The notes under the pieces: model-generated
The model's database searches: none
Told to the model about the DNA's origin: nothing
What the model saw: only the letters and a program-made list of their open reading frames with translations
Source of the DNA: a virus
Length of the DNA: 40,704 nt
UHGV virus genome: UHGV-0244400
Reading direction: 5' to 3' (one strand)
In this document: in pieces, positions 32,987-39,460 of the stretch
Layout of the letters: each line of letters starts with the position of its first letter
How positions within the stretch are numbered: position 1 is the stretch's first letter
Made by a program: the position numbers and the translations under genes

Positions 32987-33196
<210 letters not shown>

Positions 33197-33213
33197 TTAG
33201 TACATGCAACTAT

Positions 33214-33277
33214 TATCACCGCTAGAGGTAAAATAGTCAACACGCACGGTGTTGGATATTTATCCCTCGCGGTGATA
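33214..33277. promoter_or_regulatory. Right operator OR1-OR2-OR3 with divergent promoters PR (towards cro) and PRM (towards cI)
   Basis: Three 17-bp sites TATCACCGCTAGAGGTA, CAACACGCACGGTGTTG, TATCCCTCGCGGTGATA in the 100-bp cro-cI gap; lambda-type, with OR1 differing at one position from my memory of lambda. Confidence 0.85.
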
Positions 33278-33284
33278 GATTTAA

Positions 33285-34001
<717 letters not shown>

Positions 34002-34087
34002 GTCCGCAGCAAGAGACTTTATACGCATCTAGATGTAGGAAATAAAAAAGAAGATCCCTACAATAAAAATAAGGAAATCATTAAGAT

Positions 34088-34993
34088 ATGTCGATTAACA
34101 GCAATAGCGAATCCCTGCATCAAATGCAGCTTTTCCCTGTAGTAGAGGTTGTTTCTGATGATATTCCTATGGGCGTTCTCAATGATGGAACTCCTTACCT
34201 AACTCTCTACGGTCTCGCAAAGTTATGCGGCATTGATGACACGCCACTGAGGGTGTTCACATCAAACTGGAACACAGAGAAAAACAAACCCAGAGGTCAA
34301 AAAGTAGCTGCGTATTTAGCTGAGAAAGGGTTTCATAACGTCGAAAAGCTATACACTCGCGTTTTAAATAGCTCAAACGTGGAAACTCATGCTTATCCTG
34401 ACTATGTTTGCATGGCTATCCTCCGTTACTACGCTCTAGATGCCACCAATTTTGATAGGTCAGTCGCAATAGGTAATTTTGTTCGCTTGGCTGAGTACAC
34501 GCTTAAGCGAATGATTTATGAAAAGTCAAATTACAACCCAAATGCTTCAATAGATATCTCATTCGAGAACTATAGAGCAAGGATTAAGCTAAACGATCAG
34601 ATACCGACAACTCATTTTGCAGTATTCAGAGAGATAGCTGACATTGCCATGAACCTGATCGGAGGAGGATTCCCAATGGATGACACCACATCTTTGGATG
34701 GAAGTGTTGGAATTCACTGGGGAAAGTATTGGACAGCTAATGGGCTATCTGAGAAATTCGGGGAAAGGGTGCAGTACCCACATTTATTCCCCGAAAATTA
34801 CAGGCAGTCAGCTGCAAATAAGCATATAACAGCTTGGATTTATCCTATTGAGGCACTTGGCGTGTTCAGAAAATGGCTACACGATAATTACGCAATGGAA
34901 AAACTGCCAAATTACCTTGGGAACAAAAAGATTAGTAACGCCTCCGAGCTATTAGAGTCGATAAAAAAACCAGCACTCCCAAATAAGCATTGA
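34088..34993 (+). CDS. Unknown 301-aa protein at the rexAB-equivalent locus; candidate prophage-encoded anti-phage / abortive-infection protein (possibly BstA-like)
   Basis: Complete ORF with SD (AAGGA) 86 bp after the cI stop, no intervening terminator, followed by its own terminator and then OL/PL; AT-rich; no similarity to RexA/RexB; N-terminal region looks like a KilA-N/Bro-N-type domain (from memory, low confidence). Confidence 0.8.
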   Translation: MSINSNSESLHQMQLFPVVEVVSDDIPMGVLNDGTPYLTLYGLAKLCGIDDTPLRVFTSNWNTEKNKPRGQKVAAYLAEKGFHNVEKLYTRVLNSSNVETHAYPDYVCMAILRYYALDATNFDRSVAIGNFVRLAEYTLKRMIYEKSNYNPNASIDISFENYRARIKLNDQIPTTHFAVFREIADIAMNLIGGGFPMDDTTSLDGSVGIHWGKYWTANGLSEKFGERVQYPHLFPENYRQSAANKHITAWIYPIEALGVFRKWLHDNYAMEKLPNYLGNKKISNASELLESIKKPALPNKH

Positions 34994-35004
34994 TCTCCAC
35001 CACA

Positions 35005-35030
35005 ACCCGGCATCTGCGCCGGGTTTTCTT
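35005..35030 (+). terminator. Rho-independent terminator ending the cI operon (hairpin cccggc..gccggg followed by TTTTCTTT)
   Basis: Inverted repeat plus T-run 12 bp after the stop of the 301-aa gene. Confidence 0.6.
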
Positions 35031-35180
35031 TGCCTAACGCCCCCAAAAAACGCATAACCAATTGTATTTATTTCAAAATTAATAGATACAACTCACTAAA
35101 CATCGCAATTCAGATCTCTCGATCACCTTCCCAATCCACACAACCCTGCAAAAAATAAATCTATATAAAAAACATACAGA

Positions 35181-35244
35181 TAACCATCTGCGGTGATAAA
35201 TTATCTCTAGCGGTGTTGACATAAATACCACTGGCGGTGATACT
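35181..35244. promoter_or_regulatory. Left operator OL3-OL2-OL1 and promoter PL
   Basis: Sites AACCATCTGCGGTGATA, TATCTCTAGCGGTGTTG, TACCACTGGCGGTGATA with -35 TTGACA and -10 GATACT; lambda-type. Confidence 0.85.
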
Positions 35245-35283
35245 AAGCACATCAGCAGGACGCACTGACCACCATGAAGGTGA

Positions 35284-35314
35284 CGCTCTTAAAAATTAAG
35301 CCCTGAAGAAGGGT
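35284..35314 (+). promoter_or_regulatory. nutL (boxA CGCTCTTA, boxB GCCCTGAAGAAGGGT)
   Basis: Matches lambda nutL with one change at the 3' base of the boxB stem (still G-U pairable). Confidence 0.75.
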
Positions 35315-35512
35315 AGCATTCAAAGCAGAAGGCTTTGGGATTGGATGAATGAGCAGGCTGATGCTCGACCAATGTATAAACAGCGCTCATGGCAAGCAGT
35401 AACCAATCTGCGCCTCAAGACAGCGTCACTGGTAGTGCGGGCGCTCTAACCAGTAAGCCGGGGTTCAGCGCCGGCCATCCAATCACCAAAGCTAACTGAC
35501 AGGAGAATCCAG

Positions 35513-35845
35513 ATGGATGCACAAACACGCCGCCGCGAACGTCGCGCAGAGAAACAGGCTCAATGGAAAGCAGCAAATCCCCTGTTAGTTGGGGTAAGCG
35601 CAAAACCAGTTAACCGCCCTATTCTCTCGCTGAATCGAAAACCGAAATCACGAGTAGAAAGCGCACTGAATCCGATAGACCTTACGGTGCTGGCTGAATA
35701 CCACGAACAGATTGAAAGCAACCTGCAGCGTATTGAGCGCAAGAATCAGCGCACATGGTACAGCAAGCCACGCAGTGAAATAGGTGTGACTTGCTCAGGC
35801 CGCCAGAAGCAACGCGGAAAATCAATTCCAGCTTATTACGATTGA
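35513..35845 (+). CDS. N: Antiterminator N
   Basis: 110 aa; N-terminal Arg-rich motif MDAQTRRRERRAEKQAQWKAAN as in lambda N; SD AGGAGA upstream. Confidence 0.95.
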   Translation: MDAQTRRRERRAEKQAQWKAANPLLVGVSAKPVNRPILSLNRKPKSRVESALNPIDLTVLAEYHEQIESNLQRIERKNQRTWYSKPRSEIGVTCSGRQKQRGKSIPAYYD

Positions 35846-35853
35846 GGTGAGCC

Positions 35854-35991
35854 ATGCTCAAGAAAGTCAAGCGCCGACTTTACAAAGAAGGTAGATATTC
35901 ATGCCAGTTGCCAAAATGCGACACAACAAAATGGAGTGTCGATGATTGGTGTAACTGGATAGATAGATACGGAACTTGGTGGGATAAATAA
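35854..35991 (+). CDS. Small Cys-containing hypothetical protein (45 aa) directly after N
   Basis: ATG 8 nt after N stop with SD GAGGTGA; contains 4 Cys (C..C...C..C spacing not a classic zinc ribbon); below track cut-off. Confidence 0.35.
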   Translation: MLKKVKRRLYKEGRYSCQLPKCDTTKWSVDDWCNWIDRYGTWWDK

Positions 35992-36045
35992 CAGGTAACT
36001 TAAGCGTATTTACTTTCGCAGCAAACCACTTATTTGAGGTGAGAT

Positions 36046-36516
36046 ATGACAAAATCATGGAGCGTACCTTTTCCTGAATCAGAAACTGAACATGATGGAA
36101 TGCCTGTTTTCTGGAGATTCCAGGCGACAGTTGAAGAAGATGGGATAAAAATATTCGCACTTCAATATATAGCTTTTCATCAGACAGAGCATTATGCATG
36201 GTTGGTTCCTGCGCATTGGATTGTTAATTTTAAACCAGCACCAAATCAGTGGTTACAGGAATGGAAACAAAGGAGAAATAGATATGCAATTAAGAAAGTA
36301 GCAAAAAATGCAGAAAGATCTTTTGCATTCCCAACGAAGAAACTTGCTATTGAAAGTTTATTGCGCCGGAAGAAATACCATTTAATGAGAATAAAACAAG
36401 ATTTGGCTGTTGTATCAACTCTTGTTGATGGGATGAAAAATATTGATACATCAACACCAGATATTGAATATAACTTTGGACACAACCAAGAAACAGAAAA
36501 CTGGGTGTTTTATTAG
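36046..36516 (+). CDS. Hypothetical 156-aa protein in the N-cIII accessory slot (lambda ral/sieB/ea10 position)
   Basis: ATG with SD GAGGTGAGAT; AT-rich; Trp-rich N-terminal half and basic C-terminal half; no family recognised; followed by a terminator. Confidence 0.6.
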   Translation: MTKSWSVPFPESETEHDGMPVFWRFQATVEEDGIKIFALQYIAFHQTEHYAWLVPAHWIVNFKPAPNQWLQEWKQRRNRYAIKKVAKNAERSFAFPTKKLAIESLLRRKKYHLMRIKQDLAVVSTLVDGMKNIDTSTPDIEYNFGHNQETENWVFY

Positions 36517-36620
36517 TACGAATAAGCACTGTGTATTCATTCCAACGAGTGAATACACGGAGCAATGTCGCTCGTAACCAAACAGGAGCCGACTTGTTCT
36601 GATTATTGGAAATCTTCTTT

Positions 36621-36645
36621 GCCCTCCAGTGTGAGGGCCTTTTTA
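36621..36645 (+). terminator. Rho-independent terminator (hairpin gccctc..gagggc followed by CTTTTTA) upstream of cIII
   Basis: Inverted repeat plus T-run about 100 bp after the 156-aa gene; analogous to an N-suppressible tL terminator. Confidence 0.6.
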
Positions 36646-36706
36646 TATGCATACCAATAACGCTTCACTCGAGGCGTTTTCGTTATGTATAAATAAGGAG
36701 CACACC

Positions 36707-36871
36707 ATGCAATATGCCATTGCAGGGTGGCCTGTTGCTGGCTGCCCTTCCGAATCTTTACTTGAACGAATCACCCGTAAATTACGTGACGGATGGAAAC
36801 GCCTTATCGACATACTTAATCAGCCAGGAGTCCCAAAAAATGGATCAAACACTTATGGCTATCCAGACTAA
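36707..36871 (+). CDS. cIII: CIII (FtsH inhibitor, CII stabiliser)
   Basis: 54 aa [54 protein letters not shown] as in lambda; SD AAGGAG; track ORF extended upstream. Confidence 0.9.
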   Translation: MQYAIAGWPVAGCPSESLLERITRKLRDGWKRLIDILNQPGVPKNGSNTYGYPD

Positions 36872-36983
36872 ATTCACTATCGCCACTTTTATTGGCGATG
36901 AAAAGATGTTTCGTGAAGCCGTCGACGCTTATAAAAAATGGATATTAATACTGAAACTGAGATCAAGCAAAAGCATTCACTAA
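36840..36983 (+). CDS. kil: Kil (host cell-division inhibitor)
   Basis: 47 aa [47 protein letters not shown] as in lambda; overlaps cIII 3' end in another frame. Confidence 0.85.
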
Positions 36984-37058
36984 CCCCCTTTCCTGTTTTC
37001 CTAATCAGCCTGGCATTTCGCGGGCGATATTTTCACAGCCATTTTCAGGAGTTCAGCC

Positions 37059-37355
37059 ATGAACGCTTATTACATTCAGGATCGTCTTGAGGCTCAGAGC
37101 TGGGCGCGTCACTACCAGCAGATCGCCCATGAAGAGAAAGAGGCAGAACTGGCAGACGACATGGAAAAAGGCCTGCCCCAGCACCTGTTTGAATCGCTAT
37201 GCATCGATCATTTGCAACGCCACGGGGCCAGCAAAAAAGCCATTACCCGTGCGTTTGATGACGATGTTGAGTTTCAGGAGCGCATGGCAGAACACATCCG
37301 GTACATGGTTGAAACCATTGCTCACCACCAGGTTGATATTGATTCAGAGGTATAA
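37059..37355 (+). CDS. gam: Gam (RecBCD inhibitor), short GamS form
   Basis: 98 aa beginning [21 protein letters not shown], matching lambda GamS. Confidence 0.9.
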
Positions 37356-37360
37356 AACGG

Positions 37361-38146
37361 ATGAGTACAGCACTCGCAACGCTGGCAGGGAAGCTGGCTG
37401 AACGTGTCGGCATGGATTCTGTCGACCCACAGGAACTGATCACCACTCTTCGCCAGACGGCATTTAAAGGTGATGCCAGCGATGCGCAGTTCATCGCATT
37501 GTTGATCGTCGCCAACCAGTACGGCCTTAATCCGTGGACGAAAGAAATTTACGCCTTCCCTGATAAGCAGAACGGCATCGTTCCGGTGGTGGGCGTTGAT
37601 GGCTGGTCCCGCATCATCAATGAAAACCAGCAGTTTGATGGCATGGACTTTGAGCAGGACAATGAATCCTGTACATGCCGGATTTACCGCAAGGACCGTA
37701 ATCATCCGATCTGCGTTACCGAATGGATGGATGAATGCCGCCGCGAACCATTCAAAACTCGCGAAGGCAGAGAAATCACGGGGCCGTGGCAGTCGCATCC
37801 CAAACGGATGTTACGGCATAAAGCCATGATTCAGTGTGCCCGTCTGGCCTTCGGATTTGCTGGTATCTATGACAAGGATGAAGCCGAGCGCATTGTCGAA
37901 AATACTGCATACACTGCAGAACGTCAGCCAGAACGCGACATCACTCCGGTTAACGATGAAACCATGCAAGAGATTAACACTCTGCTGATCGCCCTGGATA
38001 AAACATGGGATGACGACTTATTGCCGCTCTGTTCCCAGATATTTCGCCGCGACATTCGCGCATCGTCAGAACTGACACAGGCCGAAGCAGTGAAAGCTCT
38101 TGGATTCCTGAAACAGAAAGCCACTGAGCAGAAGGTGGCAGCATGA
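37361..38146 (+). CDS. bet: Bet (Red-beta single-strand annealing protein)
   Basis: 261 aa beginning [48 protein letters not shown] as in lambda Bet. Confidence 0.95.
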
Positions 38147-38823
38147 CACCGGACATTATCGTGCAGCGTACCGGGATCGACGTGAGAGCTGTCGAACAGG
38201 GGGATGATACATGGCACAAATTACGGCTCGGCGTCATCACCGCTTCAGAAGTTCACAACGTGATAGCAAAGCCCCGCTCAGGAAAGAAGTGGCCTGACAT
38301 GAAAATGTCCTACTTCCACACCCTGCTGGCTGAGGTTTGCACCGGTGTGGCTCCGGAAGTTAATGCTAAGGCGCTGGCCTGGGGAAAACAGTACGAGAAC
38401 GACGCCAGAACTCTGTTTGAATTCACTTCCGGCGTGAATGTTACCGAATCCCCGATCATCTATCGCGACGAAAGTATGCGCACCGCCTGCTCTCCCGATG
38501 GTTTATGCAGTGACGGCAATGGCCTTGAGCTGAAATGCCCGTTTACCTCCCGGGATTTCATGAAGTTCCGGCTCGGTGGTTTCGAGGCCATAAAGTCGGC
38601 TTACATGGCCCAGGTGCAGTACAGCATGTGGGTGACACGAAAAGATGCCTGGTACTTTGCCAACTATGACCCGCGTATGAAGCGTGAAGGACTGCATTAT
38701 GTCGTGGTTGAGCGGGATGAAAAGTACATGGCGAGTTTTGACGAGATGGTGCCGGAGTTCATCGAAAAAATGGACGAGGCACTGGCTGAAATTGGTTTTG
38801 TATTTGGGGAGCAATGGCGATGA
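38143..38823 (+). CDS. exo: Exo (Red-alpha 5'-3' exonuclease)
   Basis: 226 aa beginning [40 protein letters not shown] as in lambda Exo; 4-nt overlap with bet. Confidence 0.95.
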
Positions 38824-39002
38824 CGCATCCTCACGATAATATCCGGGTAGGCGCGATCACTTTCGTCTACTCCATTACAAAGCGAGGCTGGGTATTTCCC
38901 GGTCTTTCTGTTATCAGAAATCCACTGAAAGCACAGGGGCTGGCTGAAGAGATAAATAATAAACGAGGGGCTGTATGCACAAAGCATCTCCTGTTGAATT
39001 AA
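38814..39002 (+). CDS. Small hypothetical protein (lambda orf60a-like position)
   Basis: 62 aa ORF overlapping exo stop, as in the lambda exo-ea region. Confidence 0.55.
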
Positions 39003-39460
39003 GAACGAGTATCGAGATGGCACATAGCCTTGCTCAAATTGGAGTCAGGTTTGTGCCAATACCAGTAGAAACAGACGAAGAATTTCATACGTTAGCCGCA
39101 TCCCTTTCACAAAAGCTGGAAATGATGGCGGCGAAAGCAGAAGCAAACGAGAGAGAGACCCGGCATGACAACAACAGAATGCATTTTTCTGGCAGCGGGC
39201 TTCATATTCTGTGTGCTTATGCTTGCCGACATGGGACTTGTTCAATGACACCTCAGCAAGAAAACGCCCTTCGCAGCATTGCCCGTCAGGCTAATTCTGA
39301 AATCAAAAATGCCAGACAGCAGTTTCCGGATAAAAACGTCGATGACATTTGCCGTAGCGTACTGAAGAAGCACCGCGAAACGGTAACGCTGATGGGATTC
39401 ACACCGACTCACTTAAGTCTGGCAATCGGTATGTTAAACGGCGTCTTTAAGGAACGGTGA
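38975..39460 (+). CDS. Hypothetical protein resembling an in-frame fusion of lambda orf63 and orf61
   Basis: 161 aa; N-terminal half [23 protein letters not shown].. and C-terminal half MTPQQENALRSIARQANSEIK.. each recall separate small lambda ORFs. Confidence 0.55.
   Translation: MHKASPVELRTSIEMAHSLAQIGVRFVPIPVETDEEFHTLAASLSQKLEMMAAKAEANERETRHDNNRMHFSGSGLHILCAYACRHGTCSMTPQQENALRSIARQANSEIKNARQQFPDKNVDDICRSVLKKHRETVTLMGFTPTHLSLAIGMLNGVFKER

Follow-up and report, generated by a model that had tools for sequence, protein, structure and literature searches.

In phage lambda, the early-left operon carries a slot for accessory genes between the antiterminator gene N and cIII. The region just 3' of N is occupied by sieB, which is annotated on the strand opposite to the operon transcribed from the promoter PL and encodes a membrane protein with its own promoter. 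The slot also holds ral, a non-essential, PL-driven gene whose product has 66 amino acids, and ea10. The region between ral and ea10 encodes LPR1/PreS, an Hfq-dependent small RNA (sRNA) of about 88 nt that is processed to about 68 nt, and the GC hairpin and U-tail of this RNA form tL2a, a terminator of the early-left operon; PreS is present 10 min after induction but not in the lysogen, and it activates translation of the host gene dnaN, boosting phage DNA replication (bioRxiv 10.1101/2024.10.31.621285). Here we describe the corresponding slot in the virus genome UHGV-0244400, a phage of the lambda-immunity type whose whole stretch of 40,704 nucleotides we call the window. A first-pass annotation, made from sequence alone, had flagged positions 35846-36646 as cargo foreign to lambda with two unknown open reading frames (ORFs) of 45 and 156 amino acids, ORF45 and ORF156, and had named them as candidates for anti-restriction, anti-defence or exclusion functions. 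We find that the interval is a mosaic of modules within a PL-driven operon, and we are highly confident of this module anatomy and of the expression logic that goes with it. With much less assurance, but still on balance, we favour a combined explanation in which the mosaic anatomy and expression from PL are joined to a role for ORF156 in the takeover of the host or in countering its defences.

The window reads in the direction of the leftward operon, and in BLASTN comparisons with lambda it is 97.8% identical over positions 33000-34008, 91% over 35004-35339, 97.9% over 35484-35769, 96.7% over 36526-36648, and 97.6% over 36649-39172, the last of these covering cIII, kil, gam, bet and exo. Positions 35770-36525 have no lambda match at all, and their GC content is 34-41% as against 50-54% in the flanks. 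Because of this missing match and the drop in GC, the call of non-lambda cargo is correct, and the picture of AT-rich DNA lying between a lambda-like N and a lambda-like cIII-kil-gam-bet-exo block holds good. So does the idea of a variable accessory slot between N and cIII, because other cargo is annotated there in E. coli prophages: the RefSeq annotations beneath our matches include DUF7446, DUF2528, Nmad5 and a TolA-like protein, and the Sakai prophage Sp5 has ECs_1180 at the same site. In phage Bas106, four more genes lie 3' of ORF156.

Against other phages, the cargo falls into two blocks. Positions 35487-36048, which hold N and ORF45, are 98% identical to Shigella phage SfI and to phage phi458, and positions 36018-36687, which hold ORF156, the terminator segment and some DNA beyond it, are 98.5% identical to HK97 and contiguous with it; the match to 933W covers 36018-36648 at 98.3% identity (BLASTN in each case). 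The N gene at the left edge of the slot (35513-35845, plus strand; 110 amino acids; Pfam N36, E = 1.6e-26) is itself a hybrid. Its residues 1-86 are lambda-like and correspond to the 97.9% match at 35484-35769, and its C-terminal ~24 residues, which are of the Sf6 gene 37 / SfI type, go together with ORF45. The C-terminal part of lambda N contacts RNA polymerase.

The SfI-type and HK97-type homologies overlap in a shared linker and translation-initiation region of about 30 bp (36018-36048, plus strand; GCAGCAAACCACTTATTTGAGGTGAGATATG). This linker stands 5' of ORF156 in the window, HK97 and 933W, and 5' of orf28-ral in SfI; lambda has it there too, in a slightly diverged form. Judged from these alignments, it is likely to be a recombination joint between two cassettes. 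The gene orders of the related phages are as follows. SfI has N, gp44 (equivalent to ORF45), orf28, ral, ea10 and cIII; 933W has N, L0079 (equivalent to ORF156), ssb/ea10 and cIII; and HK97 has N, gp45 and cIII. The counterpart of ORF45 is thus followed by orf28-ral-ea10 in SfI, whereas ORF45 is followed by ORF156 in the window, and the HK97 and 933W genes directly follow N, whereas here ORF45 comes between N and ORF156. Since ORF156 shares with orf28-ral both the linker upstream and the conserved segment downstream, it is a positional alternative to that gene pair. The slot can be described as a swappable cassette (ORF156 or orf28-ral) flanked by two conserved joints, namely the linker with its Shine-Dalgarno sequence and ATG (36018-36048) and the PreS segment (36526-36648). 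These two joints look like boundaries at which homologous recombination exchanges the cargo of the slot.

In outline, the interval is a mosaic of three catalogued modules in the PL operon. The first is an Sf6/SfI-type block, made up of the C-terminus of N and a 45-amino-acid gene of the gp55.4-like type (DUF5484). The second is ORF156 (HK97 gp45 / 933W L0079), joined through the shared linker in the position of orf28-ral, with sieB lost as well. The third is the backbone segment with the PreS/LPR1 sRNA up to tL2a, without the ea10 cassette. The absence of ea10 is precise: by BLASTN, the junction between 36648 and 36649 corresponds to lambda positions 33923 and 33522, a gap of about 400 bp that is found in the same form in HK97, which is contiguous here, whereas 933W, SfI, phi458 and lambda all carry ea10. 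Because ea10 is absent, the cIII leader lies directly 3' of PreS. The proposal that the cargo fills the lambda ral/sieB/ea10 position is thus right for sieB and orf28-ral, which the foreign DNA replaces, but not for ea10, which was lost by a separate, clean deletion. No Ral homologue was found anywhere in the window (the best tblastn match, outside the slot region, has E = 0.58). Among the complete E. coli genomes of our collection there is no full-length contiguous copy of the ORF45-ORF156 combination, and among phages an ORF45-like gene and ORF156 occur together only in Bas106. The exact combination of modules is unusual, yet it is a product of ordinary module shuffling.

Both ORFs belong to established protein families. 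ORF156 (36046-36516, plus strand) matches PHROG 1636, the HK97 Gp45 / 933W L0079 family, with E = 2.7e-112 over residues 1-156 of 156. It is 100% identical in amino acid sequence to L0079 of 933W, to vb_24B_11c of Phi24B, and to proteins of H-19B, BP-4795, Min27 and many other phages carrying Shiga toxin (Stx) 1 or 2, and it is homologous to HK97 Gp45, the stretch of 98.5% DNA identity to HK97 extending over the terminator downstream as well. In a collection of 15 billion proteins it occurs on at least 1000 contigs. ORF45 (35854-35991, plus strand), which is basic and rich in tryptophan, matches Pfam DUF5484 (PF17583) over residues 5-42 with 46.7 bits, against a gathering threshold of 27, and PHROG 1871 with E = 1.4e-22; the protein collection has its exact sequence on 998 contigs under the name Sf6 gene 36. 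The ORFs were correctly placed by the first-pass annotation and do have the Shine-Dalgarno sequences that it described (GAGGTGA, 5-7 nt 5' of the ATG in both cases), but they are not unknown, because identical proteins are catalogued in 933W, Phi24B, H-19B, BP-4795 and Sf6, and close ones in SfI and, as Gp45, in HK97.

In DNA this rich in AT, with one of the frames short and with minus-strand ORFs overlapping them, two open frames could in principle have arisen by chance in spacer sequence. The evolutionary evidence leaves this a negligible probability. Besides the matches of both ORFs to curated or clustered families, ORF156 differs from its copy in Bas106 at 12 nucleotides, every one of them a synonymous change at a third position, and the differences from homologues that are 57-64% identical are likewise concentrated at third positions; ORF45 has kept about 50% identity in T-even phages. 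This pattern of substitution indicates that ORF156 is under purifying selection, and ORF45 and ORF156 are, by the same sequence comparisons, real genes and not chance ORFs. The minus-strand ORFs, of 110 and 101 amino acids, have no PHROG match and overlap the frame under purifying selection, in agreement with the earlier judgement that the 110-residue one is non-coding.

The flagged interval changes in nature over its 3' fifth. Positions 36527-36638 are identical to lambda positions 34044-33933, in the ral-ea10 intergenic region, at 111 of 112 sites, and they include a homologue of PreS/LPR1 of about 88 nt (36559-36646, plus strand; the 5' end is approximate and was placed from the published length). 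Its predicted fold is the same as in lambda. It differs from lambda PreS by one substitution in a loop and by a U-tail of 5 instead of 6 U, and in an alignment of lambda, SfI, HK97, 933W, Bas106 and the window the element is almost invariant. As in lambda, it stands in the early-left operon 5' of cIII, but its neighbours differ: it has ORF156 upstream and cIII downstream in the window, and ral upstream and ea10 downstream in lambda. Rfam 15 has no PreS family model. At the 3' end of PreS, the terminator scan places the intrinsic terminator tL2a at 36621-36645 (plus strand), with a hairpin at 36621-36638 that has a GC-rich stem of 6 bp, followed by a T-run; the HK97 record labels the same element a putative terminator. 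Since it lies inside the lambda-homologous segment 36526-36648, this terminator is not foreign cargo. The hairpin terminator previously described upstream of cIII therefore exists, but it is lambda's tL2a, the 3' end of PreS, and not a part of the cargo. By homology, what fills this 3' fifth is a functional RNA that is already known and belongs to the phage backbone.

Directly 5' of the PreS body, RNA folding also predicts a perfect hairpin of 12 bp (GUGUAUUCAUUC-CAAC-GAGUGAAUACAC; 36531-36558, plus strand), which is invariant in the same six phages. The whole segment of 141 nt folds with z = -4.2. The hairpin, of which we came across no earlier description, may be a processing site for the 5' end of PreS, or an insulator of the upstream ORF. 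The PreS sRNA stays invariant while the protein-coding cassettes on both sides of it are swapped.

The order of elements downstream of PL (35216-35244, TTGACA-17-GATACT, located by promoter scan) is nutL, N, ORF45, ORF156, the structured non-coding segment with its terminator, the cIII thermoregulator, cIII, kil, gam, bet and exo. In a crude consensus scan of positions 34900-37100, PL is the only promoter-like site, and the terminator scan found no intrinsic-terminator-like site between PL and 36621. Because no promoter-like or terminator-like site lies between PL and tL2a, we read N, ORF45, ORF156 and PreS as one PL-driven early transcript. In the lysogen cI would keep this transcript repressed, and its synthesis would fall in the first minutes of the lytic phase. 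A moron unit, with its own promoter and its own terminator, was considered for the cargo and rejected: there is no promoter-like site of its own, and the terminator belongs to the lambda backbone.

The same results bear on the proposal that one or both ORFs are superinfection-exclusion or defence genes expressed from the prophage, like the sieB gene that they replace. The lambda slot does hold sieB, and the present phage carries a BstA abortive-infection gene by cI. However, there is no promoter-like site upstream of the two genes or inside them, and they lie downstream of a PL that cI represses. In contrast to SieB, both products are soluble and encoded co-directionally with PL. They lack a membrane segment (in ORF156 there is no transmembrane or other hydrophobic segment, the maximum of the 19-residue Kyte-Doolittle window being 0.56) and have no PADLOC match of note. 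Moreover, both families occur in strictly virulent phages, which are T-even phages in the case of ORF45, and Pantoea phage LIET2 and others in the case of ORF156. Since the genes have no promoter of their own, no membrane segment, and relatives in virulent phages, we disfavour the exclusion role suggested in the first-pass annotation and regard it as very unlikely.

ORF45 can be followed beyond lambdoid phages. Its sequence is identical to the Sf6 gene 36 protein and 98% identical to SfI gp44, which is linked to the same N variant, and it is about 50% identical to T-even gp55.4, which is found in more than 1000 records of T-even-type phages. The core PK.DTTKWSV.DW is kept between ORF45 and the T-even homologues. 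The cysteines that had drawn attention to this ORF are present, but they are not kept in the T-even homologues–for example, the three Cys residues correspond to L, G and I in gp55.4 of JS98–so a metal site in ORF45 is unlikely. The protein has an isoelectric point (pI) of 9.4 and no PADLOC matches. In T2, gp55.4 transcripts are among the early-to-middle transcripts. We infer, less firmly than the shared transcript, that ORF45 is likewise a peptide with an early accessory role, which T-even phages have in common with this one.

ORF156 is a basic protein (pI 9.1; the family median is 9.0), and its residues 76-130 contain 15 K or R as against 4 D or E. With a deep alignment, AlphaFold (AF2) gives a confident model, with a predicted local distance difference test score (pLDDT) of 95.9 and a predicted template modelling score (pTM) of 0.82; it supersedes a poor model (pLDDT 62) made from close homologues only. 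The model has three long antiparallel strands (residues 19-55); besides these there are two short helices, one further strand, which is short (83-86), and a helix of 33 residues (98-130). A fold search with this model found no match among solved structures. Conserved positions include G33, T47, K87 and A101, and the family shares the motif (R/K)(I/V)xK...SRFAFxTKxxA...RKxxQxxHLxR. Scans against Pfam, NCBIfam and PADLOC gave nothing meaningful for ORF156 (PADLOC only a spurious Cas1 match, E = 0.018), and when 66 members of the family were scanned against Pfam, the sole matches were three isolated and spurious ones to coiled coils. The remote homology and structure prediction that had been recommended for these ORFs thus yielded family assignments for both and a confident model of ORF156, but no neighbour of known structure. 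A DNA-binding domain of the AP2/integrase type, with three strands and a helix, was also considered for ORF156 and rejected, because hhalign aligned the expected motif with a probability of only 0.6%.

Two protein sets were searched with profiles of the family. In 5.8 billion proteins, all relatives of ORF156 are single-domain proteins of 135-165 amino acids, and in 1.84 billion representatives there are 87 family proteins, mostly of 130-160 amino acids, which supplied the deep alignment for the AF2 model. Two apparent domain fusions, P0059 and P0081, proved to be low-complexity or spurious. Close relatives are found only in prophages of Enterobacterales. In the window, HK97, 933W, Phi24B and Bas106, the gene has an early, PL-type operon position, co-directional with recombination and int genes, and in Brenneria and Pectobacterium prophages the relative is immediately 5' of xis-int. 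In prophages of marine gammaproteobacteria and in metagenomic phage contigs, it lies among small accessory ORFs in early operons, near RecT, YqaJ, RdgC and SSB, and in most of these contexts an integrase stands at the far end of the operon. Family relatives are also present in virulent phage LIET2, two genes after a DNA methyltransferase, and in Erwinia phage phiEa2809, Achromobacter phage phiAxp-3 and Delftia phage RG-2014, all three of which we take to be virulent. In Salmonella phage NX263, the relative is the first gene of a plus-strand cluster.

Most of the marine and metagenomic contexts have a DNA methyltransferase close by. At six loci (L011, L026, L027, L029, L031 and L032), distant relatives of ORF156 lie near DNA methyltransferase genes (DNA_methylase, Dam or MT-A70). 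Five of these six annotated contexts have the methyltransferase within ~2.5 kb in the same operon; at L029 it is ~5 kb away, of the MT-A70 type and on the opposite strand. This locus further contains, two genes 5' of the ORF156 relative, a gene of the Lar type for the alleviation of restriction (Lar_restr_allev). The methylase and Lar neighbours may be suggestive of an anti-restriction neighbourhood. What the contexts of ORF156 have in common is that the gene stands early, in a non-essential position, close to functions in DNA modification and recombination.

One reading of this position is that ORF156 alleviates type I restriction as Ral does, which was the leading idea in the earlier annotation. 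ORF156 occupies the exact position of orf28-ral, with the same linker and Shine-Dalgarno sequence upstream, the same PreS/tL2a segment downstream, and expression from PL; the window is without any Ral homologue, and a Lar_restr_allev gene and DNA methylases lie near distant relatives. The proteins themselves do not match. ORF156 has 156 residues where lambda Ral has 66, the two share no similarity in sequence, and the predicted fold is different; Pfam and PHROG scans show no likeness to Ral or to Lar. With a pI of 9.1, ORF156 is not an acidic DNA mimic, and the family extends to hosts and phages for which a system of the EcoKI type is not obviously the barrier that matters. We consider a Ral-type activity improbable. 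Anti-restriction by DNA mimicry of the Ocr/ArdA type was ruled out by charge for ORF45 as well as for ORF156 (pI 9.4 and 9.1). As for the candidacy for anti-restriction or anti-defence in general, the position of ORF156 is all that still speaks for it; neither homology nor fold ties either ORF to such a role, or to exclusion.

The main rival to a role against the host is that ORF156 assists the phage itself, in its DNA transactions or in the regulation of its genes, for instance as a co-factor of recombination or replication, or as an early transcriptional regulator, acting on phage DNA or RNA. Such a helper would suit the basic patch and compact fold. It would also suit the genomic company that the gene keeps, since it is always near recombination modules: Gam/Bet/Exo in the window, Erf/Abc2 in HK97, a RecE neighbour in a Vibrio phage and, among marine prophages, RecT/YqaJ/RdgC/SSB. 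The presence of relatives in virulent phages agrees with it too. We rate this rival as doubtful, and the reading that we prefer, in which ORF156 is a host-takeover or counter-defence accessory factor, as a tentative one that has somewhat more in its favour. We prefer it because ORF156 is a soluble, basic, early protein that is kept by virulent phages and alternates with ral. In this account the protein, which is soluble, compact and basic, with a beta-sheet and a long basic helix, would most probably favour the phage in the early part of lytic growth by binding to nucleic acid or to an acidic protein of the host. It would fill the niche of lambda Ral, and would not be an exclusion protein expressed from the prophage. 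A more specific version is that ORF156 stands in for Ral in many Stx and HK97-like phages as an early protein with a new type of counter-defence, its basic helix acting, as it might, on a component of host restriction or defence or on nucleic acid; this version we consider unlikely.

Several points weigh against the preferred account. The promoter scan was a crude consensus match and is blind to Rho-dependent termination after N. The shared ral slot and the methylase neighbours are circumstantial, and orphan methylases are common in such operons. ORF156 has no sequence or fold likeness to characterised anti-defence, anti-restriction or DNA-binding proteins. Literature searches found no functional study of the DUF5484 or ORF156 families, and the ORF156 family is absent from the text-form supplementary files of the accessory-gene screen of Silas et al.

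Some features of the surrounding locus are of interest in their own right. The right edge of the slot is marked, at the start of cIII, by the RNA element known as the cIII thermoregulator (36694-36752, plus strand; Rfam RF01804, 88.5 bits, E = 2.6e-21), which was the sole match in the Rfam scan. About 15 nt 5' of it, in lambda-homologous DNA, there is a second terminator-like hairpin (AACGCTTCACTCGAGGCGTT; 36659-36678, plus strand) with a T-rich tail. At the other end, the locus begins with cI (33288-34001), which is followed by a gene for a protein of 301 amino acids (34088-34993, plus strand) in the rexAB position, between cI and Timm. The product is a homologue of the abortive-infection protein BstA (PHROG 6287, E = 6e-133; PADLOC BstA, E = 1.3e-105), which fills the site where lambda has rexA-rexB. 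Phage CL707 has the same cI-BstA-Timm arrangement, at 99.9% identity, in a partial record (EF120459) that labels the gene hypothetical.

As a sequence feature, the cargo is already known: every one of its modules can be found in the public records of phages, and the slot is recognised as a hot spot of mosaicism. The lead that it offers is ORF156, a protein with a confident structural model but no counterpart among solved structures, encoded at lambda's restriction-alleviation site between the same flanking joints. Among the carriers of its family are Stx phages of medical importance (933W, Phi24B, H-19B and BP-4795). If ORF156 does act in counter-defence or host takeover, a gene conserved in Shiga-toxin phages would be explained, and the anti-defence repertoire would gain a new fold.

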